From assembly GCF_027484205.1 (NCBI RefSeq), contig NZ_JAIXUB010000001.1, positions 65,528-129,527 of the forward strand: a stretch of 64,000 bases of DNA, read 5' to 3'. This DNA is from Flavobacterium sp. Lineage in GTDB: Bacteria; Bacteroidota; Bacteroidia; Flavobacteriales; Flavobacteriaceae. Below the pieces are notes generated by a model. The model searched no databases. It was given only the letters and a program-made list of their open reading frames with translations, and was not told the DNA's origin. How positions within the stretch are numbered: position 1 is the first letter of the stretch; each line of letters begins with the position of its first letter. Both the position numbers and the translations under genes were made by a program. Shown in pieces: positions 23,919-45,518 of this stretch.

Positions 23919-23990
23919 GTTATGTAGCGCAAATATTACCTTATTTGGGTGTATTACCGCTATAACGTAGCGACTATATAAGTTAGTGAC
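23919..23990 (+). other. Array left boundary, candidate attI-like site (imperfect hairpin followed by G|TTAGTGAC)
   Basis: GTTAGTGACAATTG (from 23982) is complementary to the first cassette's end CAACTGTCACTAAA; hairpin at 23919-23966. Confidence 0.55.
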
Positions 23991-24034
23991 AATTGTAAAA
24001 AAAACGGAACGAATTCAATAACTTAATTTAACAA

Positions 24035-24556
24035 ATGAAAGAATTTATAATAGAAAACTGGGATAAAATAGTTTCGGGAATTTTAAGTATTTATGCTACA
24101 ATTTTATCTACTTATACATTTATAAAACAAAAAGACAAACTGAAAGTTGAATTTTCTTTAGGTTATATGCATGTCAAACAGAAGAATTATATGTATAGAC
24201 TAGCATCAATTAACATAATAAATTTGTCGCAAAATCCACTAAAAATTAAAGGCGCAAAATTTCATGACATTAAAGGGAAAATAGTTGATATTTCTGGTGT
24301 TCCTGAAGAAATCACAAAAAATGTGTTGCGTTCAGAAATGGATTTTGAAAATAAAGTTTTTGTTGATGTAAATCAAGAAATGAGCAAATTTGACAAGAAA
24401 ACTCAAATAAATCCCTATGATGATAGATATTTATACTACGATTATATTTCATTGAAAAAGTATATGGACGATAACAAAGTTATCTATTTTACTGTAACTC
24501 ATAACAATGGAAAAAAGAAGATAAAAATTACTAATAAAAAGATATTTGACATGTAA
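24035..24556 (+). CDS. Cassette: hypothetical protein with an N-terminal TM anchor
   Basis: Single ORF between boundary 23982 and site 1. Confidence 0.7.
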   Translation: MKEFIIENWDKIVSGILSIYATILSTYTFIKQKDKLKVEFSLGYMHVKQKNYMYRLASINIINLSQNPLKIKGAKFHDIKGKIVDISGVPEEITKNVLRSEMDFENKVFVDVNQEMSKFDKKTQINPYDDRYLYYDYISLKKYMDDNKVIYFTVTHNNGKKKIKITNKKIFDM

Positions 24557-24564
24557 ACAACTGT

Positions 24565-24699
24565 CACTAAAAACGGTTTAAAAAAATGGTGTGGCTCGGG
24601 ATTTTTCAGAAATGGTAATTGTTGAATCAAAGTTTTATTTACATTTGTAATTGGCAGTGAATGAAGTACGCAACTTCTTGTAGCCGCAAAACGTTAGGC
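24565..24699 (+). repeat. attC-like site 1 (family A)
   Basis: R'' CACTAAA ... GCAACTTCTTGTAGCCGC AAAAC GTTAGGC; TACATTTG at 24640. Confidence 0.85.
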
Positions 24700-24721
24700 T
24701 CAACTATTACAACTAATACTT

Positions 24722-25405
24722 ATGGAAGGAAAAAAGCTAATAAGAACATTATTATCATTAAGCATATTATTCATTCTGATTACGATTGGTTTTTATTTAT
24801 ACCAATTTGGTAGTTTAAGACTTTCAGAAAATAACGAAGATTGGTCTAACTTTTCAAACTATTTTAATGGAATTTTGACACCAATATTAACCTTGTTAAA
24901 TTTACTCATGTTTGCTTACCTAAGTTTTAAATTAGTACAAATTGAGGATGATAGAAATCACTGGACATTACAAGAATTAGCAAGACCATATGCAAATTTA
25001 ATAACTGAAAACACTTCTGGAAGTGTCGAAATTACGGTTCATAATGTTGGACTTGGGCCAATGATATTAACCGATTTCAGAATTTTCAAAGATCCTGAAA
25101 AAACATACAGGAACTTTTACTATTTAATTAATGACATCGCTGATTATGAAAATATAGGTCCAGAAATTCAACCAAAAATTGATTCTTTTGAAGTCAACTC
25201 TGAAAGTGGTGCAATTGCGAAAGACAAATCGCATTGTTTATTGAAAGTTTATTTTTTAGAGGATAGTCAACAAAACATGCAATTTTTAGATTTAATACGT
25301 ATTCATTTGAATGATTATACTCTATCCATAACTTATAGTGATATGTATGGTAGAGAAATAGAATGTATGCGCGAAAAGTTAAATTTTAAACCTTGGAACA
25401 ACTAG
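24722..25405 (+). CDS. Cassette: hypothetical membrane protein (two N-terminal TMs, WSNFSNYFNG motif)
   Basis: ORF fills the interval between sites 1 and 2. Confidence 0.7.
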   Translation: MEGKKLIRTLLSLSILFILITIGFYLYQFGSLRLSENNEDWSNFSNYFNGILTPILTLLNLLMFAYLSFKLVQIEDDRNHWTLQELARPYANLITENTSGSVEITVHNVGLGPMILTDFRIFKDPEKTYRNFYYLINDIADYENIGPEIQPKIDSFEVNSESGAIAKDKSHCLLKVYFLEDSQQNMQFLDLIRIHLNDYTLSITYSDMYGREIECMREKLNFKPWNN

Positions 25406-25409
25406 CAGC

Positions 25410-25542
25410 GCCTAATAGACGTTTCTCGAAATTGCGAATTTTGTGGTAAGTTCACGTTTACGTTTCGCAAGAATTTTTATCTTTAACAGAAAATAATTCG
25501 TTCCGAAGTTCGCAACTGACGAGAAGCGGCAGAACGTTGTGC
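25410..25542 (+). repeat. attC-like site 2 (family B)
   Basis: GCCTAAT A GACGTTTCTCGAAATTGCG ... CGCAACTGACGAGAAGCGGC AGAAC GTTGTGC. Confidence 0.88.
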
Positions 25543-25581
25543 GTCATTTTAACCGAACAAAACCGTAGAAAAAAATAAACA

Positions 25582-26034
25582 ATGTGTGATTTTACCAAAG
25601 GCATTAAATTATGTAGTTGTGAAAACGAAACTATAAAATTTCGTGAACAAGAGTTCTATAAAATGTTAGAAGGCGAACTTGTTAAAATTCCCAATAAAAA
25701 GAATGAAAATGTCCCCATAATTTTTATTTGGAGATTATTCAAATTGAAATCTAAAAATAATAATTACGAAATTGGAAGGTATATGCTTCCTGTAAACGAT
25801 ATTGGAAATGGATTAGATGCTGAATGGATTGCTTTAAATTTAAATTCAGAAAATTGTTTTGATTTTGATTACACTCCTGATGAGGGTGATAATTTATTCA
25901 TTCAGACCAACGAAATTGCTTCAGCATATATTTCATTCATTTTTAGGAATGGTCAATGGAAAATTGACCATTACAGCCCTTTTTCGTGGGATATTAGACA
26001 TGTTAAAGATGGACAAATTAAGGAAACTTTATAA
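25582..26034 (+). CDS. Cassette block gene 1: hypothetical protein
   Basis: 150 aa ORF; similar to the next ORF. Confidence 0.7.
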   Translation: MCDFTKGIKLCSCENETIKFREQEFYKMLEGELVKIPNKKNENVPIIFIWRLFKLKSKNNNYEIGRYMLPVNDIGNGLDAEWIALNLNSENCFDFDYTPDEGDNLFIQTNEIASAYISFIFRNGQWKIDHYSPFSWDIRHVKDGQIKETL

Positions 26035-26043
26035 AAAGTAATA

Positions 26044-26556
26044 ATGTTTGAAATAATAGATATAAATTTCGTTGAAGCAGATATACTTGAAAAAGAAATA
26101 ATTTCTTTTCACATTCCTCATTCAAAGATGCTTAATGAAGACCACAAATATTTTAAAAAAAGAATTGTTTGGACTTTAATAGAATGGAAAGACACTGAAG
26201 ATTATCCATATAAAGAAATTGAAGAAGACGAGAAAAACGGAATTCGTTATCATGAAATACCTGAACAAATAGTAAGTGAAATTAATGGAATTACAAGTGA
26301 ATCTATTAAAGATAAAATTAACGTGAATGATTGTTTTGCTTTTAATTACAACCCAAGAGAATTCGATAAATTGATATTGAGAAGTGATTACGAGTTTCAA
26401 GAGATTAAAGCAATTAGACAGCCTTACAATAGAATATTCAAATATATTGCTCTGACTTACAAAAACGGAGTTTGGGAGATTGATGAGAAAGTGGAAAAAA
26501 GAGTTTTTAAGAAAAGTAGAACAGGAATAGTAAAAATAATGTTAGAAAATGAATAA
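26044..26556 (+). CDS. Cassette block gene 2: hypothetical protein, distant paralogue of 25582-26034
   Basis: Shared motifs W.L..K, NG......N...CF.F.Y.P.E.D.L, YI.....NG.W.ID. Confidence 0.7.
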   Translation: MFEIIDINFVEADILEKEIISFHIPHSKMLNEDHKYFKKRIVWTLIEWKDTEDYPYKEIEEDEKNGIRYHEIPEQIVSEINGITSESIKDKINVNDCFAFNYNPREFDKLILRSDYEFQEIKAIRQPYNRIFKYIALTYKNGVWEIDEKVEKRVFKKSRTGIVKIMLENE

Positions 26557-27076
26557 TGAAAAAAACAGAAAAATGAATGAAAATATAAGATATAGAATAT
26601 ATAAAACCAGTATAAATATTTTCTTTATTTCAATTTATAGTAATTCAAAAGTTTATGAAATCAAAAGTGGTAAAAGTTCAATTTTACCGGGAATAAAATA
26701 TTCAATAATAACAATTTTATTTGGATGGTGGGGATTTGGATTTCCTTGGAAAAAAATTCAAGAGTTAAAAAATTCATTAACGGCATTACATATAAATTTC
26801 TCTGGTGGAGAAGACTATACCAAGGTAATAACTGAAATGGATTACGAAGAAAAAACAGTTTGGGTTTATAACAATCTAAAACATGAACTTTTTGAAAAAA
26901 CTAATATTGAAACTATTGACATTATTATTGATTTACAAACTAATTCAAAATTGACTCTTGAAGGAAATATAATTTTTATAATTGAAAGTTTAAAAAAGTT
27001 GAACATTGTAAACTTAAGAAATTCAGATATAGAAGAAATTATTAATAAAATAAAGCAGTTTGATTATAGAAATTAA
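26549..27076 (+). CDS. Cassette block gene 3: hypothetical membrane protein
   Basis: TM segment ITILFGWWGFGFPW; overlaps the previous stop codon. Confidence 0.65.
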   Translation: MNNEKNRKMNENIRYRIYKTSINIFFISIYSNSKVYEIKSGKSSILPGIKYSIITILFGWWGFGFPWKKIQELKNSLTALHINFSGGEDYTKVITEMDYEEKTVWVYNNLKHELFEKTNIETIDIIIDLQTNSKLTLEGNIIFIIESLKKLNIVNLRNSDIEEIINKIKQFDYRN

Positions 27077-27295
27077 ATGAAAAATGAAATGAAAAAATTA
27101 AATATAATTTTAATTGTATTCTTAAGCTTAACTTCTTTAATATTTGCAGTATTAAATAACTCTAACGCATAAGATTTAAAAACAACTGAAGTAGAACTAA
27201 ATTCAGCAAGAGATTCTTTATCAATGTATCAAGGGAATTATAACAAATTGAATGTACAATATAAAATTTTGGAAAAATCACTTGAAGAAAAATAA
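27077..27295 (+). pseudogene. Small TM/coiled-coil ORF with an in-frame stop
   Basis: MKNEMKKLNIILIVFLSLTSLIFAVLNNSNA*DLKTT...LEEK*; internal TAA at 27170-27172. Confidence 0.55.
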
Positions 27296-27303
27296 AACCG
27301 AAC

Positions 27304-27437
27304 GGCTAACTGCAGTTACAAGAAATTGCTAGGCTTGATTTTTGTCAGAATTCGTTATGCAGAATCAAAGTTTTGGTTATATCTGTAATTGACAGTGAAT
27401 GAAGTACGCAACTTCTTGTAGCTGCGAAACGTTAGCA
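27304..27437 (+). repeat. attC-like site 3 (family A)
   Basis: GGCTAAC T GCAGTTACAAGAAATTGC ... GCAACTTCTTGTAGCTGC GAAAC GTTAGCA. Confidence 0.9.
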
Positions 27438-27445
27438 GATATAGC

Positions 27446-27841
27446 ATGAAAAAAGAACATCAAAACATATTAGAATTAATTCCTAAAGATAAAGGTGATT
27501 ATAAAACTGCTCAAAATCTAAAAAAACACAATATTTCGAAATTAAAATCAATTATACCAAAATTATTGGAATGGATTCAAGATATGAATTGGCCAATTTC
27601 AGTAATAGTTGCTGAATATTTAGTCGATAATTTTAGTGAAATAGAAAACGAAATATATCCAATACTAAATACTAACGATGACATTTGGAAATGGAATGTA
27701 ATAAATATTTTTAAGGATTTAATTGGAGATGAAAAAAGCATTGAATTAATAAAAAGAATAGCTGAAAATCCAACAGAAATGGAAAAACTTGAAGAATTAG
27801 ATTTACTATGCAAAGAAGTTATTGAAAAACGAAAATGGTAA
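27446..27841 (+). CDS. Cassette: DUF5071-like protein
   Basis: LIPKDKGD and LLEWIQDMNWPIS motifs, recognised from memory of the family. Confidence 0.65.
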   Translation: MKKEHQNILELIPKDKGDYKTAQNLKKHNISKLKSIIPKLLEWIQDMNWPISVIVAEYLVDNFSEIENEIYPILNTNDDIWKWNVINIFKDLIGDEKSIELIKRIAENPTEMEKLEELDLLCKEVIEKRKW

Positions 27842-27851
27842 AAACTACATC

Positions 27852-27986
27852 TGCTAACAGCAGTTACAAGAAATTGCTATGCATGGGATTTATCAGAATT
27901 GGAAATTGTTGAATCAGAGTTTTGTCTATATTTGTAATTGTCAGTGAGTGAAGTACGCAACTTCTTGTAGCGGCGAAACGTTAGCA
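27852..27986 (+). repeat. attC-like site 4 (family A)
   Basis: TGCTAAC A GCAGTTACAAGAAATTGC ... GCAACTTCTTGTAGCGGC GAAAC GTTAGCA; TATATTTG at 27927. Confidence 0.9.
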
Positions 27987-28007
27987 TCAATTTTAAATTT
28001 ACGATGT

Positions 28008-28298
28008 ATGTCATTTTTGAAAAATATATTTGGGAAAAAATCTAATGAAGAAGGTACTTTAACTCAAATTAGATTTACAAAAGATAACATTAAAAATTTC
28101 CCGAAATACGAAGCACTGTTGATTGATGGAAAAATAAAGTTTGATTCTTCTGGAAGGCTTCGTTATCTGCATGGAGCACCCGTTGGAGATATGTTATTAA
28201 TAAGAATGAATAAGGATGGTAAAGCTGTCTACAAAGAGTCTGCTAAAGAATGGTTTGATCCAGAAAGTCAAAAAGCAAAAGACTTTTTTTGGAAGTAA
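28008..28298 (+). CDS. Cassette: hypothetical protein (start MSFLKNIFGKK)
   Basis: The ORF-track start 27948 lies inside site 4; the ATG at 28008 is the plausible start. Confidence 0.65.
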   Translation: MSFLKNIFGKKSNEEGTLTQIRFTKDNIKNFPKYEALLIDGKIKFDSSGRLRYLHGAPVGDMLLIRMNKDGKAVYKESAKEWFDPESQKAKDFFWK

Positions 28299-28305
28299 AA
28301 ACTGC

Positions 28306-28444
28306 TGCTAACATTGGTTTTCATCAATGGCAAGGCTTGGGATTTATTTGTCATTGGAAAGGTTTTTAATTTAAAGTTTTGTTAATACTTGTAAAGGCTT
28401 GGGCTTGGTTCGTCACCACTTCTTGAAGCCGCGAAACTTTAGCC
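28306..28444 (+). repeat. attC-like site 5 (family A; R' core mutated to TTT)
   Basis: TGCTAAC ... CCACTTCTTGAAGCCGC GAAAC TTTAGCC. Confidence 0.8.
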
Positions 28445-28479
28445 GTCAGTTTGACAGAACGCAAAAAAATCTAAACAGA

Positions 28480-28893
28480 ATGAAAAAAATAATTAGTTTA
28501 ATATATTTTTCAATTTTAATGAATAGCTGTGCTTGGCTTGATGAAAGTGAACATCAAAAAATTATTGGACAATATGAAATTGGCTGGAACGACCTAGAAT
28601 CTAATCGAGCAATTACGAAAAAAATCGAAAATTCTGAAAGTAATTATCAAGAAATTGTTGGATGTTATGTTTTTGCAGTCGGTCATAATGAAAATTTCAT
28701 AATAGCAAAACAACACCAAAATTTTAATTCGAAAACTAATTATTACTTAATAGATATTAAAAAAAATGAAAAAGATTACTCAAAAGGTGTTTTCGGACCT
28801 TTAAACGAAACCGAATTTGAAAAAATGAAAACAAAATTTAATATTAAAAACTTAAAATTTGACTTAAAATTTGCTGATGAACCATATAATTAA
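28480..28893 (+). CDS. Cassette: lipoprotein (DUF3997-like)
   Basis: Lipobox LMNSC; VGHNENFIIAKQH and YYLIDIK motifs; start corrected out of site 5. Confidence 0.6.
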   Translation: MKKIISLIYFSILMNSCAWLDESEHQKIIGQYEIGWNDLESNRAITKKIENSESNYQEIVGCYVFAVGHNENFIIAKQHQNFNSKTNYYLIDIKKNEKDYSKGVFGPLNETEFEKMKTKFNIKNLKFDLKFADEPYN

Positions 28894-28956
28894 ATCAAAC
28901 AAAAAATCGAAAAGAAAAAATCGAAAAGAAAAACTCATAAAAGAAAAAAAACGAAC

Positions 28957-28975
28957 GGCTAACAGCAGTTTACAA
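28957..28975 (+). repeat. attC-like site 6, collapsed (R'' and start of left arm only)
   Basis: GGCTAAC AGCAGTTTACAA, then AT-rich sequence and the ATG at 28993; no loop, right arm or R'. Confidence 0.6.
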
Positions 28976-28992
28976 ACATTTTTTACATCGTT

Positions 28993-29343
28993 ATGAAAGA
29001 ACTTTATCCTGAATTAATAGACTATATTTTCCAACATTGTTGGAAATATTACTCTGAAATAGAGAAAGAAGCAATCGACCATCATATTGGAGCTGTGAAG
29101 TTTGATAAATTTGCTTTTCAAAGTCAGAAACTTGATGATGCAAAAACCAGATTTTCAACAGAAAATCCAGAAGCTTTAAAATTATTGGAGAATGGTTACT
29201 CAGAATTTATTAAAACTACAGCGACTAGAATTTTTAATGAGCACGAAAACGAATTGGAATTGAATTTTTGTCCTGGATGTGGAAAAATAGCCAGAACTCC
29301 AAAAGCCAAACAGTGTAGGTTTTGCAGAAATGATTGGCACTAA
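28993..29343 (+). CDS. Cassette: hypothetical protein with a C-terminal zinc ribbon
   Basis: CPGCGKIARTPKAKQCRFC. Confidence 0.7.
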   Translation: MKELYPELIDYIFQHCWKYYSEIEKEAIDHHIGAVKFDKFAFQSQKLDDAKTRFSTENPEALKLLENGYSEFIKTTATRIFNEHENELELNFCPGCGKIARTPKAKQCRFCRNDWH

Positions 29344-29351
29344 AAAACGGC

Positions 29352-29483
29352 AGCTAACAGCGGTTTCTCTCAATTGCGAATTTTGTAGTAAATTCACGTT
29401 TACGTTTCGCAAGAATTTTTATCTTTAACAGAAAAAAATCAGTTCCGAAGCTCACAATCTCTCCAAGCGCCGAAACGTTAGCA
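29352..29483 (+). repeat. attC-like site 7 (family B)
   Basis: AGCTAAC ... GAAAC GTTAGCA; loop shared with sites 2, 12, 13, 14. Confidence 0.87.
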
Positions 29484-29522
29484 GAAAGCGTCTCCAAAAA
29501 TCACGTAACTAAATATGAAAAG

Positions 29523-29837
29523 ATGTTTAAATTAAAAAAAATAACAATTTTACAAATTGAAAAATTTTTAACAATTATATTTTTCTTGATTTTTGTAATC
29601 TTAACAAGAAACACATTAATTGAATCTTACAATAGAATAGAAGATTTGAATACTGAAAAAACTATCAGAATTGTAAATGATAAATCTCAGAATGAAAATT
29701 TGGTTAATTTTACAAAAAAAGACAAAGCTAATTTCTCAAATCATTTGGATGTTTTAATTTTACTCATAATTGGTTTTTTTATTATGTTTTACAAGGTTCA
29801 GAAAAAAATAAATGTAGAAAAAAATAAAATTGAATAA
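29523..29837 (+). CDS. Cassette: small two-TM protein
   Basis: Two hydrophobic segments. Confidence 0.6.
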   Translation: MFKLKKITILQIEKFLTIIFFLIFVILTRNTLIESYNRIEDLNTEKTIRIVNDKSQNENLVNFTKKDKANFSNHLDVLILLIIGFFIMFYKVQKKINVEKNKIE

Positions 29838-29911
29838 TCGGTTTTTAAAAGTTAAAACTAATTGCAAAATAATTGCAAAACAAAAACAGAATTACTAAAA
29901 AAAACGGCTTC

Positions 29912-30050
29912 TACTAACAGCCATTTGCACCAATGACGAGGCATGGGATTTATCAGAAATTGGAAAGGTCTTTAATTAAAAGTTTTGGTTACATTTGTGA
30001 AGGCTTGGTCTTGGTTTATCGCCACTTCATGAAGCCGCGAAACGTTAGCG
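29912..30050 (+). repeat. attC-like site 8 (family A)
   Basis: TACTAAC ... CCACTTCATGAAGCCGC GAAAC GTTAGCG; TACATTTG at 29990. Confidence 0.87.
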
Positions 30051-30087
30051 GTAATTTTAAAAAACGCACGTGAATAAAATACGAAAC

Positions 30088-30528
30088 ATGAAATATCAAA
30101 TCAAAACCGATTATAAAAGACTTGGACTTCATGATTCTCATCTATCTGAAATCAAAATAGAAAATGATAAAATTTTTATAAATTTAGATTGGGGATTTTT
30201 AGAAAATTATTCCGAAGATAAAACTATAGAAGCAATTATATTTGATAAGGCTAAACTTAATTTAGATAATATTTACAATCAATCATTTAAAAAGTATGAT
30301 GAAATTGGTTTTGTAGATATTGAGAAACCTGATAATTTTGAATTAGATGAATGGCTTGTAATGGAAAATAAATATCAATTCAATGACAACAAACATATTT
30401 TTACATTAAGTATAACAAACTATTCTTTGTACTTACAATGGACAATAGTTTGTATAAATGCAGAATTAAATTGGGACAAGTTCATTTTACATAAGAATTG
30501 GCTAACAGGAGAACAGTCGTTGGGATAA
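30088..30528 (+). CDS. Cassette: hypothetical protein
   Basis: ATG at 30088 (GTG at 30070 possible); LHDS N-terminal motif. Confidence 0.65.
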   Translation: MKYQIKTDYKRLGLHDSHLSEIKIENDKIFINLDWGFLENYSEDKTIEAIIFDKAKLNLDNIYNQSFKKYDEIGFVDIEKPDNFELDEWLVMENKYQFNDNKHIFTLSITNYSLYLQWTIVCINAELNWDKFILHKNWLTGEQSLG

Positions 30529-30536
30529 AACACTAT

Positions 30537-30699
30537 CGCTAACACAGGTTTTATGCTATTGCTGCGCTTGGGCTTTTTTGGACGCTTGGTCTCTTATCTT
30601 TTTTCTTTTTCATCACGTTTTATTTCCAAAAGTTTTCGGTATATTTGTTATCGGCTGTGATAAAAGCAGCAACTGTCGCAAAGCGGCATTACGTTGGTG
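30537..30699 (+). repeat. attC-like site 9 (family C)
   Basis: CGCTAAC A CAGGTTTTATGCTATTGCTG ... CAGCAAC ... GTTGGTG; TATATTTG at 30640. Confidence 0.85.
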
Positions 30700-30745
30700 G
30701 CAAGACTACATCAACAGACAAAAAAATCAATAAATAAAGAAAAAA

Positions 30746-31834: not shown

Positions 31835-31843
31835 AAGCCCAGC

Positions 31844-31871
31844 CACCAACATGCAGTTTGGCAAACAGTTT
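31844..31871 (+). repeat. attC-like site 10, collapsed (R'' joined directly to the next cassette start)
   Basis: CACCAAC ATGCAGT TTGGCAAACAGTTT; TTGGCAAA is complementary to the next cassette's end TTTGCCAAC at 32510. Confidence 0.65.
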
Positions 31872-31905
31872 ATAAAAACTACTAAAAATAAAAAATATAT
31901 TAATT

Positions 31906-32028
31906 ATGAGTGATAAAGAAAAACCAGAAAAACCTACAAATCAATCAGAAAAACCAACTGATGGAGGTTCAACATTTATAACTTTGAATGATGAAACACC
32001 AAGCCGAAATACAACAAACAAAGACTAA
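31906..32028 (+). CDS. Cassette: 40-aa hydrophilic peptide, missed by the ORF track
   Basis: MSDKEKPEKPTNQSEKPTDGGSTFITLNDETPSRNTTNKD*, preceded by an A-rich leader. Confidence 0.4.
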   Translation: MSDKEKPEKPTNQSEKPTDGGSTFITLNDETPSRNTTNKD

Positions 32029-32484: not shown

Positions 32485-32511
32485 TTAATTCAGTGGAAAA
32501 TAAAACCGATT

Positions 32512-32676: not shown

Positions 32677-32700
32677 GCCATTTTCATAACACTCGATTTT

Positions 32701-33405: not shown

Positions 33406-33431
33406 ATTATTTTACCTAAACGACACGAAAA

Positions 33432-36344: not shown

Positions 36345-36351
36345 AAAATAC

Positions 36352-36506: not shown

Positions 36507-36527
36507 GATGTTTCAAAAAATATATCT

Positions 36528-38330: not shown

Positions 38331-38442
38331 ACAACTGAATTTATAAAGAAAAGAAAAATGTCATTTAAAATGATTCGTCAATTGCATGAAAAATCAATCA
38401 TTCCTACTGATGTTTCGATACAAACTTATTAAAAGACACAAT

Positions 38443-38567
38443 CGCTAATAGTGTGCAAAACTTCATTACTTAGTTTTCGTTAAGTAGTGCGATTTGTTAC
38501 TATTTTCGTTTTGAGTTAATCCAAAATCTCTGTTGCCAAGATTTAACGAGTTTTCCGAACGAATTAT
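38443..38567 (+). repeat. attC-like site 17, heavily degenerate
   Basis: CGCTAAT...GTGCAAAACTTC versus GAGTTTTCC GAAC GAATTAT; GTT core absent. Confidence 0.35.
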
Positions 38568-38640
38568 TTTTATAACTATATAGATTTCGAAAACTTACAT
38601 AAAAAAGAAAATTTTAAATTAATAAAGTTTTTCGTTAAAA

Positions 38641-39336
38641 ATGAGAAAAATAAATTTATACTTAATAATACTTGTTTCAATTTTTCTAACAAACAAGTCG
38701 TTTTCACAATCTATAATTAATGACAAAGATGGTTTTGTAAATGTCCGAAAAGAGGCTAATAAAGACAGTCAATTAATTGATACCTTAAAAAATGGTCACA
38801 TAATATATGATTTAGAACGAGAAGGAAATTGGGTAAATATCGATTATTTTAAAAATAACGAATCTTTAAGCGGTTATATTTACAACGATAGGTTTAAACG
38901 AATCGAGAAATTTAAAGAAATTAAGAGAAAAACAATCAGTGCTAATGAGGTAGTTTTAGGCAATGATAGTATTGAAATTAGAGTAACTGAGGCAAAATTT
39001 GAACCTAAAAAACACAAATTCACTTATTCGAAGGAAAATAAAAAGGTAATTACTCTCATTGATAAAAAGCAGTATTACGGAACTGATGGCGAAGTACCAA
39101 AAACACAATATGAAGAAATTAAAATGAAGATTAAAGATAAAGTAATTATACTTCCAAAAAGTGCGACAGAAAATTTATATGAACCGAGTATAAATAAAAT
39201 TACTGTTCATTATGACGAAATTAATAAAACAATCTACATAGATTCAATTAATAGCGATGGTGCTGGCGGTTATGTTGTGGTTTGGAAAATAAAAAAAGAA
39301 AAATTTGAAGACAGATATATATTTTATGGTTTTTAA
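38641..39336 (+). CDS. Cassette: secreted bacterial SH3-domain protein
   Basis: Signal peptide; DKDGFVNVRKE...GNWVNI...GYI; NSDGAGGY.VVW. Confidence 0.7.
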   Translation: MRKINLYLIILVSIFLTNKSFSQSIINDKDGFVNVRKEANKDSQLIDTLKNGHIIYDLEREGNWVNIDYFKNNESLSGYIYNDRFKRIEKFKEIKRKTISANEVVLGNDSIEIRVTEAKFEPKKHKFTYSKENKKVITLIDKKQYYGTDGEVPKTQYEEIKMKIKDKVIILPKSATENLYEPSINKITVHYDEINKTIYIDSINSDGAGGYVVVWKIKKEKFEDRYIFYGF

Positions 39337-39348
39337 TTTAACAAAAAA

Positions 39349-39514
39349 AGCTAACCCTAACTCCAGTTTTTAATTCTGTTTATGCTTACGCTTGCCATTT
39401 TGTTATTCGCGAAAAGTACTCAGATATTTTCAATTTAATCTTTCAAATTAATTCAGTAAATTTGTTTTGCTAGTGATTGCACCAACATCAGGCGTAAGCC
39501 GAAACACGTTAGTC
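39349..39514 (+). repeat. attC-like site 18 (divergent family)
   Basis: AGCTAAC/CCCTAAC; GCTTACGCTTG/CAGGCGTAAGC inverted repeat; TAAATTTG at 39457; GTTAGTC. Confidence 0.6.
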
Positions 39515-39541
39515 GCTTTACTAAAAACTTGAATAAAAAAC

Positions 39542-40099
39542 ATGAGCGAATTACAAACAAAGTATCAAAATGCAATAAAGTTTGCTGCAAAAAAGCATGC
39601 TGATAAAAATCAATTAATCCCGGGAACAAACTTATCTTACGTAGTTCATTTAAGCAATGTTGCAATGGAAATTTTAATTGCTTCTCAAAAAACAGAAACG
39701 TTTGATACAGAATTTGCAATTCAAGTCGCTTTACTCCACGACATATTGGAAGATACAGAAACTACTTTTGATGAACTTGTAAATGAATTTGGAGAAGAAA
39801 TTGCAAAAGCAATTTTATCTTTAACAAAGAACTCTAATATTCCAAAAGAAAAAAGAATGGACGATAGTCTAAATCGTATTAAAGAATTGAAGAAAGAAGT
39901 TTGGGCAGTAAAATTGGCAGACAGAATTACAAACTTACAAGTTCCACCAGAACATTGGAGTATTGAAAAGATTACAGAATATCAAAAACAAGCTGTTCAA
40001 ATACATAATTCCTTAAAAGGCGGAAATGAGTACTTAGAAAACAGACTTAGTAAAAAAATATTAGATTACTTAAAATATTGCGTAACAACTACAGAATAA
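39542..40099 (+). CDS. Cassette: HD-domain small alarmone hydrolase-like protein (RelA/SpoT HD, Mesh1-like)
   Basis: AAKKHADKNQ...YVVHLSNVA, ALLHDILEDT, VKLADRITNL. Confidence 0.85.
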   Translation: MSELQTKYQNAIKFAAKKHADKNQLIPGTNLSYVVHLSNVAMEILIASQKTETFDTEFAIQVALLHDILEDTETTFDELVNEFGEEIAKAILSLTKNSNIPKEKRMDDSLNRIKELKKEVWAVKLADRITNLQVPPEHWSIEKITEYQKQAVQIHNSLKGGNEYLENRLSKKILDYLKYCVTTTE

Positions 40100-40153
40100 T
40101 TACTGATACGAACATCGATTTCAATAATTTACAACAAAAGATAATTTTAAAAT

Positions 40154-40735
40154 TTGAATATGAGAACCAATTCGAAAGTTAAAAAAGATGAAAAGAGCAA
40201 TTTAAAAAAACATAAAAAAATCATCAATTTATCAGTAATAACAGGATTCCTTTTTTTATTGATTTGGATTTTCTTTTTTTATCAAAAGACATTTATAGAT
40301 ATTAAAATTGTATTAGCATTACTTTTCATTCCGAGTTTAATTGTAACAATACTTTTCTATAAAAAATTTGTGCCAATAAGTTTAGAAAACACTCTCCTGA
40401 ATATTTTATCATACATACTCGTCTATTTTCTTATTACTATTCCAATTGGTAATTTTGTAGTAATTTTATTTTTTTCGATAAACACTTTTCTAGCTTCTGA
40501 TCATATTGAAAAAGTAAACTTGAAAATCGAAAATGTGAATGTCACAAAAATCCGAAAACGAACACTTAACAAAAATAACTACTATTCCCATTTTGATGTT
40601 ACCTATAATGGCGTTTTAAAAAGATTTAAAACGGGAGATACACCAATTGATGAACTTGAAAACAAAACTGTAGAGTTCAAGTTAGCCAAAGGTTTTTTTG
40701 GATATTATATAATTAAAGGACGCAAAATTCAATAA
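40154..40735 (+). CDS. Cassette block: three-TM membrane protein
   Basis: Hydrophobic segments; C-terminal KGFFGYYII. Confidence 0.65.
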   Translation: MNMRTNSKVKKDEKSNLKKHKKIINLSVITGFLFLLIWIFFFYQKTFIDIKIVLALLFIPSLIVTILFYKKFVPISLENTLLNILSYILVYFLITIPIGNFVVILFFSINTFLASDHIEKVNLKIENVNVTKIRKRTLNKNNYYSHFDVTYNGVLKRFKTGDTPIDELENKTVEFKLAKGFFGYYIIKGRKIQ

Positions 40736-40737
40736 TA

Positions 40738-41424
40738 ATGATACTACTTACAGAAAAACAAGCCAATGATTTAATCACGTTTGTAGAAGATAAATTAACT
40801 ACAAAATCGTGCAATCACAAATTAACTTTTGCAATGCAATGGGCAAAAAAAAATAAAATTGACTTAGAAGATTTTGAAGATTTGATGTTGGAACAAGGTT
40901 GCGGTTGTGATTGCGAAGTGGTTTTGAACTTACCAAATGAAGGCGATTTAGAGTTGGAAGAAGAAAAAGAAAAAAACGATGATAACATAAACCCATTCAA
41001 AATCCCAGCTATTTTTGTTGAAGACTTATCGAAATTGTACGACAAAGCACTTTTTACAAGTGATGATTTAGATTATAATATCCACACAAGTCCAAATGAA
41101 ATTTTAATTCCAGCACCATACGGATATAAACCTAAAAAAAAAATGCCCAGAAGCGACTGGTTTTTCATTAGTTCAATAAGTGAAATGCCTAATGGTTTAG
41201 GTTTTGTAAAGCAAATTGAACCCATTTCAGCAATTGAATTTTCAAAAAAAATAAGAAACTCAAATATTGAATGTTTAAAAGACTTTTCGCCAAGAGCGGC
41301 ATCTTATTATTTTTCAAGAATCGAATTGCAACAAATTGGTAATGGAATGTGGTGCCATTTTTTAGAAAGAACAGGAATTGGAGGATTTAGTGTAGATTTA
41401 AAAATTAACAAAGCAGTAAGATGA
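40738..41424 (+). CDS. Cassette block: DUF2695-domain protein
   Basis: CNHKLTFAMQW...LEQGCGCDCEVVLN. Confidence 0.7.
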   Translation: MILLTEKQANDLITFVEDKLTTKSCNHKLTFAMQWAKKNKIDLEDFEDLMLEQGCGCDCEVVLNLPNEGDLELEEEKEKNDDNINPFKIPAIFVEDLSKLYDKALFTSDDLDYNIHTSPNEILIPAPYGYKPKKKMPRSDWFFISSISEMPNGLGFVKQIEPISAIEFSKKIRNSNIECLKDFSPRAASYYFSRIELQQIGNGMWCHFLERTGIGGFSVDLKINKAVR

Positions 41425-41434
41425 TAAAAACTTA

Positions 41435-41566
41435 CACTAAAAGCGGTTTGATAAAATGGCAAATTTTATGGTAAATACAAGTTTATATTTTACAAGAAAT
41501 TTTATCTTTATCAGAAAATAATTAGTTCCGAGGTTTTCAATCTTGTTAAACGCCAGAACATTACTA
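41435..41566 (+). repeat. attC-like site 19 (family B; cores AAA/ATT)
   Basis: CACTAAA ... family-B loop ... AGAAC ATTACTA. Confidence 0.78.
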
Positions 41567-41660
41567 GCAATTGACTAGCAGGATGGAGAATTCAATAACT
41601 TAATGCAGAAAAGATATTTTTTATCTTTATTGAATTGTGGAAAAAAACAAAATTTAAAAT

Positions 41661-42152
41661 ATGTTAATACCAATTATTTTCTTTTCAACTTTTTTTATAT
41701 TAATATTATTTTTTATAAACTCAATAAATAAAAACAGAGAAAATCAATATAAATTCTTAATTGAAAGTTTAAAAACTGAGACAGAACTTTATATTGAGCA
41801 GACCAAAATCGCAACTATGACAATGGGGCGAAATAATCGAGATTTTTTATTTAATCGTTGCGATTTATATTTGACTAAAAACGCTATGATAATTTTAGGT
41901 TTTACTAAAAATAGTTTTCTAAAACAACTCTCTTTACCAATTATTTTAACAACAGAACTTAGCGAACTTTCAAATAGGTTTCCATTTGCATATGTAAAAA
42001 AAGTAAATAAGATAAGCTTTGAGAATAATATTGTGAAGATTAATTTTGGAGAAAAAGGAATTACTAAAACAGAAGTTACACTGAAATTTAACTCACTGAG
42101 CGAAATTGAAAAAACAAAAATTAAAGAATTAGTTGAAAAAAACTGCTGGTAA
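41661..42152 (+). CDS. Cassette: hypothetical protein with an N-terminal TM
   Basis: Its stop TAA lies inside R'' of site 20. Confidence 0.7.
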   Translation: MLIPIIFFSTFFILILFFINSINKNRENQYKFLIESLKTETELYIEQTKIATMTMGRNNRDFLFNRCDLYLTKNAMIILGFTKNSFLKQLSLPIILTTELSELSNRFPFAYVKKVNKISFENNIVKINFGEKGITKTEVTLKFNSLSEIEKTKIKELVEKNCW

Positions 42153-42277
42153 CAACAGTTTGGTAAAATGGAGAATTTTGTGGTAAATACAAGTTTATAT
42201 TTTACAAGAAATTTTATCTTTATCGAAAATAATTAGTCCCGAGGTTTGTAACCTTGTTTAGTACCATAACGTTAGCA
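42147..42277 (+). repeat. attC-like site 20 (family B)
   Basis: TGGTAAC ... ATAAC GTTAGCA. Confidence 0.8.
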
Positions 42278-42284
42278 AACATTT

Positions 42285-43124
42285 ATGAAAAACAGTATCT
42301 TTTTCTTCATATGTTCATTATTCTCACAATTTGCACATTGCCAGGAAATGAGCATGGAGGATGAATTATATGTATTTCACTCTCCTTCAACTGGTAAAGT
42401 TGGCTATATGAATAATCATGATGAAATTATTATTCCTGCACAATATTCATCAGCTAGCTCTAAATTTAATATGTATGTTGTAACTCTTGGTAAAATAAAT
42501 TCAGGAGAAGAAAAATATGCTCTTTATGATAGTCGTGGTAATTTCATTTTAGGATTTGAAAATAATTATGAATTTATTAGTTTGTCAGATTATGAGGAAA
42601 GTCTTATTCAAGTTCAGAAAAATGGCAAATATGGTTACGTAAATAAAGAAAATGAGATTAAAATTCCAATCATATATGACGAGGTATTACAATTAGGGAA
42701 TGGATTGATAACGGCTCACAAGAATGGCAAATATGGTTTTATTGATTTTTCAGGCAATATAATTATTGAATTTCAATATGAGGATGTATTCATCTTTGGA
42801 GAGATACAAAGTGACAATCACAAATACTGCCAAATTTCAATAAATGGAAAGTATGGGTTTATTAACGAAAATGGACAAAATGTAATTCCATGTATCTATG
42901 ATTCAGTAACTCAATTTCACAAAGATATTTCAGAAGTAACTATTAATGAAAAACATGGAGTTATAAATACAAGTGGAGAGATTTTAATCCCAATATTGTA
43001 CGACCATTTAAAAGAAGATTACGAAACAAGTCAATTTGTAGCAACTATCAATTCAAAACCAAAGTATGAATTTATATACGACAGAACAGGGATTTTTATA
43101 AAGAGAAGAAAAGTTTCTAACTAA
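42285..43124 (+). CDS. Cassette: secreted WG-repeat protein
   Basis: Repeated KNGKYG(Y/F)I..G..IIP..YD units. Confidence 0.85.
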   Translation: MKNSIFFFICSLFSQFAHCQEMSMEDELYVFHSPSTGKVGYMNNHDEIIIPAQYSSASSKFNMYVVTLGKINSGEEKYALYDSRGNFILGFENNYEFISLSDYEESLIQVQKNGKYGYVNKENEIKIPIIYDEVLQLGNGLITAHKNGKYGFIDFSGNIIIEFQYEDVFIFGEIQSDNHKYCQISINGKYGFINENGQNVIPCIYDSVTQFHKDISEVTINEKHGVINTSGEILIPILYDHLKEDYETSQFVATINSKPKYEFIYDRTGIFIKRRKVSN

Positions 43125-43132
43125 AAAACTTT

Positions 43133-43265
43133 TACCAACAGCAGTTTCTCTCAATTGAGAATTTTGTAATAAATTCACGTTTACGTTTCGTAAGAAATTT
43201 TATCTTTGATATAAAATAATTGGTTCTAAGATATGCAACTGAAAAGAAGTGACGGAACGTTAGCA
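43133..43265 (+). repeat. attC-like site 21 (family B)
   Basis: TACCAAC ... TATCTTTG at 43201 ... GGAAC GTTAGCA. Confidence 0.85.
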
Positions 43266-43290
43266 TAATTTTTTTATATCAACAACATAG

Positions 43291-44007
43291 ATGAATATTA
43301 TTAGAGAGATAAAACATTTTTTTCAAAGACGAAAAGCACTTAATGAAATTTATGATGATCTTAATAACTTAGATGAAGTTCATTTAGACAAAAGAATAGA
43401 AATTTTCAATGAAATTGTAACTCCAAAGTTAGCAGAAATAGGGTTAGTCAATTGGAATGGTAAATACATTTGGTTTAGTAATTTTAACGAAGAGGGAATT
43501 AAACACGTAGTGGAATATAATGTGTTTAAGTATTTTGGTGGATCTTTTTCGTATGGAAACTGTTATAACTTCATACCAACTATTTCTGGACGTAAATTAA
43601 TTTATCACAAGACCGACAAGTCAACTAAAATCATTTATTACAAAAAGTCTGAAGGTTGGCAAAAAAGTGATGATGAACATTCTCCTATAAACATAGATAA
43701 GGTAAGTACTGTAAACGAAGAAAAATTTCGTAAAAGTTTAAATGAAGTTTTAGATAGAAATATTTCAAAATTTCAAAAATGGTTTCAACAGAATGAATCT
43801 ATCGAACAAAATATTCAAAATTTAATAAAAGATATTGAACAAGAAAAAAAAGAATTTATTCGTAGAATTATATCCTTTGATTACATTCTATGCTTTTTGT
43901 ACACTCGGAAAGGTGATGTCGATGCCGCCAAAAAACATTTTAATCAACACATAAAAAGAAATTTAAGTAGTCCAACAGAAATAGAACTTTTAAAAGAGAA
44001 AATATAA
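43291..44007 (+). CDS. Cassette: hypothetical cytoplasmic protein
   Basis: 238 aa ORF between sites 21 and 22. Confidence 0.7.
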   Translation: MNIIREIKHFFQRRKALNEIYDDLNNLDEVHLDKRIEIFNEIVTPKLAEIGLVNWNGKYIWFSNFNEEGIKHVVEYNVFKYFGGSFSYGNCYNFIPTISGRKLIYHKTDKSTKIIYYKKSEGWQKSDDEHSPINIDKVSTVNEEKFRKSLNEVLDRNISKFQKWFQQNESIEQNIQNLIKDIEQEKKEFIRRIISFDYILCFLYTRKGDVDAAKKHFNQHIKRNLSSPTEIELLKEKI

Positions 44008-44021
44008 ATTATGCAAGCTTC

Positions 44022-44158
44022 TGCTTACAACACCTTCAAGAAATGTCCATACAAGGGATTTATCAGAAATTGGAAAGTTTTAATTTAAAGTTTTAGTTAT
44101 ATTTGTAAGGGCTTGGTTTTGGTTCATATCCACTTCTGGTAGCGGCAAAACGTTAGCA
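44022..44158 (+). repeat. attC-like site 22 (family A; R'' core TAC)
   Basis: TGCTTAC ... TATATTTG at 44098 ... CCACTTCTGGTAGCGGC AAAAC GTTAGCA. Confidence 0.82.
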
Positions 44159-44168
44159 ACTTTTTAAA

Positions 44169-45350
44169 ATGATAACAAAAAGAAAATTACTATTTACTTT
44201 ACTTTTAACGTTTGCAACATTCTATGCAAATGCACAACAAGTAATTTTTGGAACTAATAATTTTATTGAATATCAAGTAGGAACACTTCCGTTAGTTATT
44301 TCAGTTCCTCATGGCGGTAACTTAAATCCAAGCGCTATACCAAATAGAACTTGTAACAACCCTGTTTATGCAACAGACGAATTTACCATTGAAACTGCGT
44401 TAGAAATCAAAAACAAACTTTTTGAATTAACAGGTTGCTATCCTCATTTAATTATTTCTCACTTGAATCGTAGTAAACTTGACCCTAATCGTAATTTAGC
44501 AGACGGTGCATGTGGTAACTCTGAAGCAGAAACAGCGTGGAATGAATTTCATGGTTTTATAACTAATGCACGAAACACGACAAATCTACAAAATGACTAT
44601 AAAACTTTTTTCGTGGATTTACATGGTCATGGCAATCCAATTCAAAGAATTGAATTAGGATATTTACTTTACGATTCTGAACTAGGATTATCTGACAGTA
44701 CCTTGAATACAGAACAATATTTAAACTACAGTTCTATTAAAAATCTAGTTCTAAACAATGTAAACAATTATACACATGCGGAACTTTTGAGAGGACCTTA
44801 TTCTTTAGGTACATTTTTAGCAAATAATAATTTCCCATCAGTTCCTAGTCAAAGCATTCCGTTTCCTGGAACAACTTCAAATTATTTTAGTGGTGGATAT
44901 ATTACTGCAAATCATACTTGTTATAACATTGGAGCTCCAATAAATGGACTTCAAATGGAATTAAATTACAACAATATTAGAAACACAGCAGCAAATAGGA
45001 CGGCATTTGCTCTTGCATTTACTCAAAGTATGGTATCCTATTTTAGTACACATTTTAATGTCTCACTGATTGGTTGTAGCACACTTTCAACTATTAATAA
45101 TGAATTAGAAAAAAAAATAATTATATACCCAAATCCGTTAGTTAGAGGAGATAGTATTCATTTTAATTTCTCAGAAGATATTGAATATGAATACCAAATT
45201 TTAAATACATTAGGGCAGATAGTAGTTGCTGGACAGTTGAAGCACAATCAGTCTATAGATTCAAGTAAATTATCTCCAGGCGTTTTTTTAATAAAACTAT
45301 CCAATAAAAACAATAATGATATAAATGTGCTTAAAATTATTGTTCAATAA
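44169..45350 (+). CDS. Cassette: N-formylglutamate amidohydrolase-like enzyme with a T9SS type-A C-terminal domain
   Basis: PLVISVPHGG, SKLDPNR, VDLHGHG, GGYIT, LQMEL; CTD IYPNP...ILNTLGQ...LSPGVFLIKL. Confidence 0.75.
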   Translation: MITKRKLLFTLLLTFATFYANAQQVIFGTNNFIEYQVGTLPLVISVPHGGNLNPSAIPNRTCNNPVYATDEFTIETALEIKNKLFELTGCYPHLIISHLNRSKLDPNRNLADGACGNSEAETAWNEFHGFITNARNTTNLQNDYKTFFVDLHGHGNPIQRIELGYLLYDSELGLSDSTLNTEQYLNYSSIKNLVLNNVNNYTHAELLRGPYSLGTFLANNNFPSVPSQSIPFPGTTSNYFSGGYITANHTCYNIGAPINGLQMELNYNNIRNTAANRTAFALAFTQSMVSYFSTHFNVSLIGCSTLSTINNELEKKIIIYPNPLVRGDSIHFNFSEDIEYEYQILNTLGQIVVAGQLKHNQSIDSSKLSPGVFLIKLSNKNNNDINVLKIIVQ

Positions 45351-45357
45351 AAACAAC

Positions 45358-45518
45358 TGCCAATACTGGTTTTATTGACTATTACAAAGCTTGCACTTGC
45401 TGTTTTGTTTTAATGGAATAATCTGGTTGATACATTTATATCTTTCAAAGAAAATTCGTGGGTTTGTTTTGATCAGTCATTGCAGCAGCAACTGGTGAAA
45501 AGCAATAGAACGTTGACA
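45358..45518 (+). repeat. attC-like site 23 (family C-like), right end of the array
   Basis: TGCCAAT ... GCAGCAAC ... AGAAC GTTGACA; no further cassette follows. Confidence 0.72.

Follow-up and report, generated by a model that had tools for sequence, protein, structure and literature searches.

This study concerns a 64,000-nucleotide stretch of Flavobacterium sp. contig NZ_JAIXUB010000001.1, referred to as the window, and a 21.5-kb block within it (23982-45518) in which small genes alternate with repeated sites. Our conclusion, with a probability of roughly 0.85, is that the block is the integrase-less array of an integron analogue specific to Bacteroidota. Functionally the system is an integron, with a recombinase, an insertion site, an array of cassettes with structured sites, and turnover of cassettes at the sequence G|TT. 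By membership it is not an integron, since the additional domain of the integron integrase IntI, extrahelical bases and a near-symmetric spacer are all absent. The system is apparently undescribed so far.

Cassette sites and cassette ends

The array is bracketed by a LysM-NlpC/P60 gene and pccB and is divided into 22 cassette units. About 27 open reading frames (ORFs) of 100-600 amino acids (aa) lie at 24035-45350, on the plus strand except one, and the window has a G+C content of ~30%. Of 23 points of punctuation, 20 are complete sites (128-165 nt), two are truncated left ends, and one, at 23982, is an attI-like boundary. Boundaries were set by anchoring on a right AAC[GA]TT motif and a left nnnTAAC-N4-GTT motif. 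A pattern anchored at the site ends matched four times in the window and 0 times in 100 shuffles. The covariance model R1, derived mostly from sites of other genomes, identified 17 window sites at E≤0.011, on the plus strand only and all inside 24567-44156. Its best match in the other 42 kb of the window had E=0.08, so the repeats are confined to the block. A scan for nnnnAAC...GTTnnnn demanding 7/7 complementary flanks gave 40 matches window-wide and was not discriminating, because the outer R' bases are part of the next cassette. A generic inverted-repeat finder did not detect the cassette sites, and a scan with Rfam, which has no attC family, matched nothing within the array. A sequence-only reading of the window had described about 23 punctuating palindromic sites with nnnnAAC...GTTnnnn ends, placed between these same two genes. 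Its number and sizes agree with the 23 boundaries and the 128-165 nt found here, the ends are present in every complete site, and both flanking genes were matched by Pfam.

In integrons, crossover occurs between the G and TT of the right core. Therefore the first bases of a cassette complement the left core of its own site, not that of its neighbor. The first 14 nt past each G|TT were compared with the reverse complement of the 14 nt preceding the C of the next AAC. Cassette starts matched their own R'' end at 8.15/12 positions, versus 5.43/12 for non-cognate ends (permutation p<5e-5). At the variable positions 5-10 the cognate ends scored 3.6, against 1.9 for non-cognate pairs and likewise 1.9 for the two ends within a site. 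The cassette organization proposed in the sequence-only reading is thus seen in the ends themselves. Judged by these matches, cognate-end complementarity is a specific signature of units that would once have been circular and opened at G|TT.

The site consensus is nnnTAAC-N4-GTT...AGC-N4-RAAC|GTTAGC. All site families of the window follow one plan, with nnnTAAC-4 nt-GTTnnnn on the left and nnnnAGC-4 nt-RAAC-GTTAGC on the right. From the outside inward, a site consists of an R box (nnnTAAC/GTTAnnn), an asymmetric unpaired spacer (left 4 nt, right 8 nt), and a 7-bp L helix with T always facing G at its second pair (A.C when the other strand is read). Past the L helix, an internal loop of 4/4-5 nt leads to a second helix (4-7 bp) and then to a center of ~75-100 nt. 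The helices are contiguous, with no single-base bulges and no extrahelical bases. The centers fall into three or four sequence families in the window (A, B/B', C).

Covariation was examined in alignment A1, which combines 97 sites from other genomes with 8 family-A window sites (105 in all). In the two helices beyond the imposed pattern 93.5% of cells were paired, versus 31-48% with the partner slid by 1-3 columns. Double-change cells numbered 233 versus 24-79 when slid, the covariation score was 0.32 versus 0.03-0.08, and 0/500 shuffles reached the observed values. Compensatory pairs include GTTTGGC/GCCAAGC versus GTTTTGC/GCAAAGC, and TGGCGG/CCGCCA versus GCGGGG/CCCCGC versus TTGCGAA/TTCGCAA. 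The covariation therefore favors recognition of a folded strand or cruciform over recognition of a fixed sequence. In a site version common outside Flavobacterium the center is made of 3-4 tandem ~18-nt units with a consensus of about TTTGTGCTAAATTGAACA (A1 columns 28-101, e.g. L078 4935-5062; loci are given L numbers). These units could be a protein-binding array.

The motif TAnnTTTG is reportedly the -7 box of Bacteroidetes promoters (Bayley et al. 2000; Chen et al. 2007). It is present on the plus strand in 11/20 window sites and on the minus strand in 0 (shuffle p about 5e-4). A further copy at the head of the array, TATATTTG (23898-23905, plus strand), fits the box, points into the array and is a candidate array promoter. 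This distribution suggests a promoter for the array and site-borne promoters for the next cassette.

The site type was sought in 185,579 species genomes with CTAACNNNNGTT-N95-125-AGCNNNNRAACGTTAG, which gave at least 119 matching stretches. Among the matching stretches listed, ~114 were from Bacteroidota, in five orders. They comprise Flavobacteriales (many Flavobacterium species, Chryseobacterium, Kaistella, Riemerella, Empedobacter, Epilithonimonas and Aequorivita), Sphingobacteriales (Pedobacter and Daejeonella), Chitinophagales (Chitinophaga, Lacibacter, Hydrotalea and Saprospiraceae), Cytophagales (Algoriphagus and Microscillaceae) and Bacteroidales (Paludibacter). The modal site length was exactly 128 nt (69/129 among the matches listed). 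Matches in Mycobacterium (L010), Leptolyngbya (L011) and Spirochaetales (L059) have no helices and look like chance. Genuine-looking sites of the Empedobacter/Flavobacterium type were found on a 795-bp contig of Pseudidiomarina fusca (L021) and on a 1765-bp contig of a gammaproteobacterial metagenome-assembled genome (L041), for which contamination or mis-binning is more likely than transfer. The sequence-only reading had proposed a Bacteroidota-specific platform with deviant sites. Its taxonomic part is borne out by stretches that are almost all from Bacteroidota. The deviation is evident in the asymmetric 4/8-nt spacer, the missing extrahelical bases and the large unpaired center, and the site type is tied to a recombinase that lacks the additional domain of IntI.

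The linked recombinase and the attI-like site

ORFs of at least 180 aa from the at least 119 stretches were clustered. The largest cluster was a tyrosine recombinase located directly upstream of the array, and usually co-oriented with it, at 9 loci; C-terminal fragments of it were found in 7 further loci. L015, also in this cluster, has an unrelated Arm-DNA-bind_5 integrase of a different family and was set aside. The recombinase has ~347 aa, with Phage_int_SAM_4 and Phage_integrase domains after ~75 extra N-terminal residues. Its best NCBIfam match is NF040815 (XerA, 'site-specific tyrosine recombinase/integron integrase') at 192-233 bits. Next is TIGR02249 (integron integrase) at 187-214 bits, which is under the cut-off of 265; this match is split in two stretches and leaves model positions ~179-254 unmatched. 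Both models outscore those of XerC and XerD. In the PDB the best sequence matches were XerA 4a8e and 5hxy, with alignments that begin at recombinase residue ~76, the N-terminal extension being absent from XerA. The additional domain of IntI4 (2a3v, residues 180-241), through which the extrahelical bases of attC are contacted, has only ~20 corresponding residues in the recombinase. The catalytic R, K, H-x-x-R, H and Y are conserved, as are the N-terminal ~60 aa (W38, S39, W45). An AlphaFold model (pLDDT 80) predicts a beta-beta-alpha-beta-beta-alpha N-terminal domain, and Foldseek ranked IntI4 2a3v at the top for this model, with XerA second. The family is very large, with >8000 candidates, the best 120 of which are ≥79% identical. 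Source records call the homologues 'XerD' or 'site-specific tyrosine recombinase/integron integrase'.

An attI-like layout was found ~100 nt past the recombinase stop codon at every locus. It consists of a TAnnTTTG box, a short palindrome present twice, and ATATA(A)AC(A/T)AG|TTAG, the consensus core in relatives being ATATAAAC(A/T)AG|TTAG. The palindrome arms vary between genomes and agree within a genome (GTATGA/TCATAC, GTCTGA/TCAGAC, TAGTGA/TCACTA, CGCTA/TAGCG). The window shows this layout exactly at 23898-23991. The promoter-like box described above has its equivalent directly past the recombinase stop codon in L110, L071, L032, L124 and L129. Palindrome 1 (CGCTG-ttatg-TAGCG, 23915-23929) has a counterpart in L110, L053, L124 and L129. 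The arms of palindrome 2 (CGCTA-taacg-TAGCG, 23958-23972) are those of F. terrigena L124, where CGCTA-N5-TAGCG is present twice. The crossover region ACTATATAAG|TTAGTGACA (23973-23991, plus strand) fits the consensus of the relatives, and the array begins past G23982. Three recombinase homologues (P0109, P0099 and P0070) were also looked up irrespective of sites. All three have an attI-like site downstream. The P0109 contig ends just after it, before any cassette, and P0099 and P0070 are followed by co-oriented cassettes with R1 sites, downstream only, with none in the 10 kb upstream. Scattering of the repeats over whole genomes was thus not seen: the sites are confined to the array in the window and absent upstream of the recombinase elsewhere.

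Three near-identical strain pairs are the same through the recombinase and the attI-like site and split exactly at G|TT. L124 (F. terrigena) and L125 (a metagenome) have an identical recombinase protein and upstream genes in common; at the DNA level they are identical as far as ...GTATATACAAGTT and, past that point, unrelated. L126 and L127 share 99.8% identity across 11,140 nt, then diverge at ...AAACAAGTTATG, and L128 and L129 diverge at the crossover too. One cassette start is common to L126 and L127 at different array positions. Identical gene content across relatives, which would have spoken against mobility, was not found; the cassettes differ between near-identical strains and the breakpoint is at G|TT.

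No tyrosine recombinase is encoded in the 64-kb window by tblastn, in agreement with the sequence-only reading, which saw no integrase beside the array. Relatives L128-L130 were found starting from the LysM gene. They have LysM orthologues 75-81% identical to that of the window and the same left-hand synteny, with the recombinase directly beside the LysM gene, then an attI-like site and cassettes. Beyond the LysM start codon, the window stays homologous to these relatives for ~67 nt and then jumps to the attI-like region. No remnant of the recombinase was found at 23758-23900. Because three relatives carry the gene at the orthologous position by LysM, the recombinase gene and its promoter were lost at this locus and the attI-like site was kept. 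A comparison of the interval between LysM and pccB across relatives had been proposed in the sequence-only reading; on the LysM side it gave a recombinase and an attI-like site in L128-L130 and, in the window, the attI-like site without the recombinase. With the recombinase gone, the array of the window is probably frozen, barring a recombinase that works in trans.

In L128, the region between the LysM and recombinase genes (4131-5641) is a tandem duplication of the locus head. It includes an internally deleted recombinase, in which the start codon is fused to the last ~15 codons, with its own attI-like site and one 277-aa cassette. Behind this remnant the flank is repeated, and the intact recombinase follows. 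Such losses of the recombinase therefore happen.

Full-length homologues of the recombinase (66% identity, N-terminal domain included) were found on two Chryseobacterium plasmids, which suggests that the system can also travel. NZ_CP041688.1 (L131) has, downstream of the recombinase gene, an attI-like site and an array in which five sites were recognized. Insertions between R'' and L'' of a site are also seen on this plasmid (16248-17625 and 18709-20698), both of them reversed: one IS110-family transposase element and one group II intron (ltrA). In L124 an IS110 element (13403-14760) lies between L' and R', in the right-hand spacer. Among the parasites of classical attC sites are the IS1111-attC group and group IIC-attC introns. 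By analogy, the insertions of IS110 elements and the group II intron in the sites described here are a close parallel to these attC parasites.

Contents of the array and flanking genes

Most window cassettes have no Pfam match; the families that were matched are named with their units. All units are on the plus strand except cassette 11, and agreement of the ends is given out of 12 positions. Cassette 1 (23983-24693) has an ORF of 173 aa (24035-24556) with no Pfam match and a site at 24565-24699 (R1 E=3e-11); its start, TTAGTGACA, and its own end, TGTCACTAA, are complementary at 11/12. Cassette 2 (24694-25536) has an ORF of 227 aa (24722-25405), likewise with no Pfam match, and a site at 25410-25542 (E=2e-21; ends 8/12). 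Unit 3 (25537-27431) has three ORFs without Pfam matches (25582-26034, 26044-26556 and 26549-27076), a site at 27304-27437, and ends that are not cognate (5/12). It is probably a multi-gene or fused cassette. Cassette 4 (27432-27980) has a DUF5071 ORF (27446-27841) and a site at 27852-27986 (E=5e-14; ends 10/12). In cassette 5 (27981-28438) the ORF extends to 28298 and the site is at 28306-28444 (E=2e-8; ends 10/12). Cassette 6 (28439-28980) has an ORF to 28893 with a weak DUF3997 match and ends with a truncated site, R''-L'' only, at 28956-28980 (ends 10/12). The ORF of cassette 7 (28981-29477) encodes 116 aa (28993-29343) and is followed by a site at 29352-29483; a homologue with 67% identity occurs as a cassette of another Flavobacterium array (L016), among different neighbors.

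Cassettes 8 (29478-30044; ORF 29523-29837; site 29912-30050, an R1 match) and 9 (30045-30693; ORF 30070-30528; site 30537-30699, E=0.008) both have ends of 9/12, as does cassette 10 (30694-31866), which has a DUF695 ORF (30746-31834) and the second truncated site (31842-31866). Cassette 11 (31867-32670, minus strand) is the sole cassette with an ORF opposing the array (31969-32484). It lies between one truncated and one complete site (32512-32676), and TTGGCAAA (31857-31864) is complementary to TTTGCCAA directly before the C of R'' at 32518. Cassette 12 (32671-33399) has an ORF at 32701-33279 and a site at 33274-33405 (E=5e-24; ends 10/12). R1 matches were also obtained for the sites of cassettes 13 (33400-34045; ORF 33432-33893; site 33924-34051; ends 11/12), 14 (34046-34864; ORF 34079-34729; site 34738-34870; ends 9/12) and 15 (34865-35550; ORF 34909-35409; site 35420-35556; ends 11/12). 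Cassette 16 (35551-36500) has an ORF at 35565-36344 and a site at 36352-36506 (ends 8/12).

Unit 17 (36501-39508) has two ORFs, a site at 39355-39514 and ends that are not cognate (4/12). Its first ORF (36528-38330) encodes 600 aa with a serine beta-lactamase-family domain (PF00144, E=6e-48) and C-terminal TPR repeats; by its family this protein may be a beta-lactamase, an esterase or a peptidase. The second (38641-39336) has an SH3_3 domain. A hairpin of 61 nt lies between them (38440-38500; AATCGC...GCGATT, inner stem TTACTTAG/TTAAGTAG) and may be a terminator or a short, degenerate cassette site. Unit 18 (39509-41560) has three ORFs, 39542-40099 (HD_4), 40154-40735 and 40738-41424 (DUF2695), and a site at 41435-41566 (R1 match; ends 5/12). 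The sites of the next three cassettes are R1 matches: cassette 19 (41561-42271; ORF 41661-42152; site 42147-42277; ends 8/12), cassette 20 (42272-43259; ORF 42285-43124 with WG repeats; site 43133-43265) and cassette 21 (43260-44152; ORF 43291-44007; site 44025-44158). Cassette 22 (44153-45512) has an ORF with a type IX secretion system (T9SS) C-terminal sorting domain (44169-45350) and the last site (45358-45518).

Arrays of relatives carry restriction-modification and other defense-like genes (N6_N4_Mtase+ResIII, EcoRI methylase, GmrSD, HNH, DUF2326). Stretches rich in defense-like genes lie behind the recombinase at L125 9438-13892, L127 13734-15985, L126 13643-17706 and L130 368-3526, with GIY-YIG, HNH/CTD11, MC6/MC7 and a Type ISP-like enzyme also among the defense-like genes there. 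Crp/Fnr-type regulators of ~190 aa that bind cyclic nucleotide monophosphates are recurrent cassettes (L004, L042, L049, L063, L067, L095), and the Chryseobacterium plasmid L131 has Crp/Fnr-type cassettes twice (13359-13919 and 20897-21469).

The left flank of the window array is a peptidoglycan endopeptidase gene with LysM (3e-31) and NLPC_P60 (1e-26) matches in Pfam (22531-23757, minus strand), a conserved neighbor of the locus. The right flank is a pccB-like carboxyltransferase gene (45619-47160, minus strand; Pfam Carboxyl_trans 3e-201). Farther left are a FadL-like porin, a MiaB-like radical-SAM enzyme, a DUF1573 protein and a two-component pair; farther right, the pccB-like gene is followed by biotin carboxylase and biotin carboxyl carrier protein genes. 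These genes are ordinary for Flavobacterium, and source records of the LysM homologues say Flavobacterium. A Flavo-1 RNA is located upstream of the MiaB-like gene (18120-18196, plus strand), and two tandem tRNA genes with equal Rfam scores (57.8 bits each) are at 13563-13634 and 13679-13750 (minus strand). Two further intergenic inverted-repeat elements of ~145-157 nt (22390-22533 and 47168-47324) lie just outside the LysM...pccB interval, one on each side. Both end in GTGGTTTAAATTA and are unrelated to the cassette sites.

Alternative explanations and known systems

In the mechanism that we propose, the ~347-aa tyrosine recombinase encoded directly upstream of the array would insert circular cassettes at the attI-like site. 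Each cassette would comprise one or a few ORFs and one 128-165-nt site, and crossover would take place between G and TT, both at the attI-like site and at the right end of the cassette sites. The recombinase would recognize the cassette sites at least partly by shape, that is by the R box, the 4/8-nt spacer, the L helix and the second helix. A single folded strand may be the substrate, or the sites may recombine as double-stranded DNA. In the Flavobacterium families a promoter-like TAnnTTTG box in the site center would be directed at the next cassette.

Several observations weigh against this interpretation. The recombinase is without the domain that IntI needs for reading folded attC. Whole-site folding energies were not better than those of shuffles (z mostly -2 to +1), so palindromic character is limited to the basal ~20 bp. 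Of the 'palindromic sites' in the sequence-only reading, the pairing of the basal ~19-20 bp stands and palindromy throughout the site does not. Counts of G.T versus A.C pairs do not settle which strand folds. The copies of the TAnnTTTG box are related, which means that the events behind its enrichment are not independent. Two sites are truncated, and the ends are non-cognate in 4/20 units. Three of these four carry two or three ORFs and therefore may be multi-gene or fused cassettes. The array of the window was found in four metagenomes in one arrangement only, and on contigs only; a single arrangement is the prediction for an array without a recombinase and is not proof of it. The 'joints' reported in metagenome contigs are assembly effects of repeated sites and were rejected. 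As for novelty, no description of this system was found in the open-access literature.

Three other explanations were weighed. In the first the genes are Xer/dif modules like the pdif modules of Acinetobacter plasmids, moved by the housekeeping XerC/XerD, and the linked recombinase is a Xer paralogue. The recombinase does score well on XerC, XerD and XerA models, and source records name XerD. We nevertheless regard this explanation as very improbable: the score on the integron-integrase model is above those on XerC or XerD, a dedicated attI-like site lies downstream of the recombinase gene, and the sites are structured, 128-165 nt long and present once per cassette in direct orientation, not 28-bp dif-like. 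Even less probable in our judgment is the remnant of a classical integron, a group of clustered attC sites without an integron integrase (CALIN), with ordinary attC sites and a canonical IntI encoded elsewhere in the genome. The RYYYAAC...GTTRRRY ends, the R and L boxes and the cassette-end complementarity are all attC-like, and a 64-kb window without a recombinase leaves room for a distant intI. Against it, every recombinase linked to the site type belongs to the ~347-aa family without the additional domain of IntI, and the sites have a 4/8-nt spacer without extrahelical bases. Published IntegronFinder surveys also report nearly no integrons in Bacteroidetes. A 2016 survey had only In0 elements there, and a 2022 survey a single complete integron, that of Salinibacter ruber (PMC9024848), and two IntegronFinder-based studies reported none in Elizabethkingia or Chryseobacterium. 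The label CALIN given by the sequence-only reading is only loosely right, since the attI-like site, not required of a CALIN, is kept here. The label asks for two or more attC sites and no integrase close by; 20 sites without a recombinase fit it, but these sites are not classical attC.

The least probable explanation is that the repeats are a self-spreading element resembling repetitive extragenic palindromes or miniature inverted-repeat transposable elements, or a regulatory element (terminator or RNA), and the 'cassettes' are ordinary genes with no history of movement as units. The sites of a family resemble one another closely within a genome, many matches in other genomes are single within an 8-kb block, and the conserved structure could serve an RNA, with promoter-like boxes present within sites. 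These points are outweighed by complementarity that is cognate to the cassette and not to the site, and by arrays that are strictly polar and anchored at the recombinase and attI-like site, with the upstream 10 kb free of sites. Strain pairs split exactly at G|TT, the same cassette is found at different array positions, and there is no Rfam match. An integron analogue in Bacteroidota remains our preferred reading.

Beyond the window, and with distinctly less assurance, we lean towards the wider claim that Bacteroidota have an integron lineage of their own. Its IntI/XerA-like recombinase would lack the additional domain and possibly read the sites with a new N-terminal domain, and its sites could bring a promoter for the next cassette. 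Such a lineage would occupy chromosomes and plasmids in at least five orders (genera including fish and poultry pathogens), carry defense, regulatory and hydrolase genes, and fall outside the standard integron definition. Integrons are held to be essentially proteobacterial and defined by the IntI domain, and a phylum-wide analogue would widen the known range of cassette capture. If the claim is true, the system is a natural experiment on a Xer-like enzyme recognizing structured sites and a very large unexplored pool of cassettes (restriction-modification and defense-like genes, Crp/Fnr regulators, a beta-lactamase-family protein). It would also explain many assembly breaks in Flavobacterium genomes. 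Surveys that require the IntI additional domain would not call these loci complete integrons.

The definition of an integron used here is reportedly that of IntegronFinder and of Messier and Roy (2001). Array-linked recombinases lack the additional domain of IntI around patch III, the feature by which reviews define IntI (PMC9668308 and PMC8138268). No integrase gene adjoins the array in the 64-kb window, and the gene is present at this locus in L128-L130. An attI-like site with G|TT crossover beside the recombinase gene is found in relatives, and the same element is at 23915-23991 in the window. The R''-L''...L'-R' inverted repeats with AAC/GTT cores are present, with structure conserved over sequence, and extrahelical bases and a near-symmetric (5/6 nt) central spacer are absent. 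Discrete cassettes vary between strains in relatives, and such variation was not seen for the window's own array. The definition of a Xer/dif system, a single 28-bp site for dimer resolution in which two ~11-bp arms flank a spacer of 6-8 bp, does not describe the 20 tandem structured sites of 128-165 nt.

Like integrons, among them the superintegron of Vibrio cholerae (VCR sites of ~125 nt), the system has a recombinase gene, an attI-like site and a long polar array of mostly single co-oriented ORFs, mostly of no known function, each followed by an imperfect inverted-repeat site. AAC...GTT cores, R and L boxes, G|TT crossover and complementary cassette ends are shared, as are the few site sequence families per genome, the strain-variable cassettes, the chromosomal and plasmid copies, and the invasion of sites by IS110-family elements and group II introns. 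The best structural match of the recombinase is IntI4. Unlike IntI, it has no additional domain and has an extra N-terminal domain, and its gene is usually co-oriented with the array, not divergent. Unlike in integrons, the attI-like site has twin palindromes with genome-variable arms, and about half of the Flavobacterium-family sites in this window contain a promoter-like box. The sites differ from attC in the 4/8-nt spacer, the lack of extrahelical bases, the T.G/A.C pair, a ~75-nt center unpaired across the arms, and a length of ~128 nt and an architecture that are conserved across the whole phylum.

The recombinase resembles archaeal XerA in its best sequence matches (4a8e, 5hxy, NF040815) and in having core-binding and catalytic domains with no IntI insertion. 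XerA and XerC-XerD resolve dimers at one 28-bp dif, whereas here there is an attI-like site with an array of structured sites and turnover of content. The sites of pdif modules are short and dif-like, alternate in orientation, and are not known to have a dedicated recombinase or attI. The Acinetobacter modules and the system described here are alike as small gene modules bounded by tyrosine-recombinase sites in varied contexts, but the sites here are long, structured, directly repeated and tied to a dedicated recombinase.

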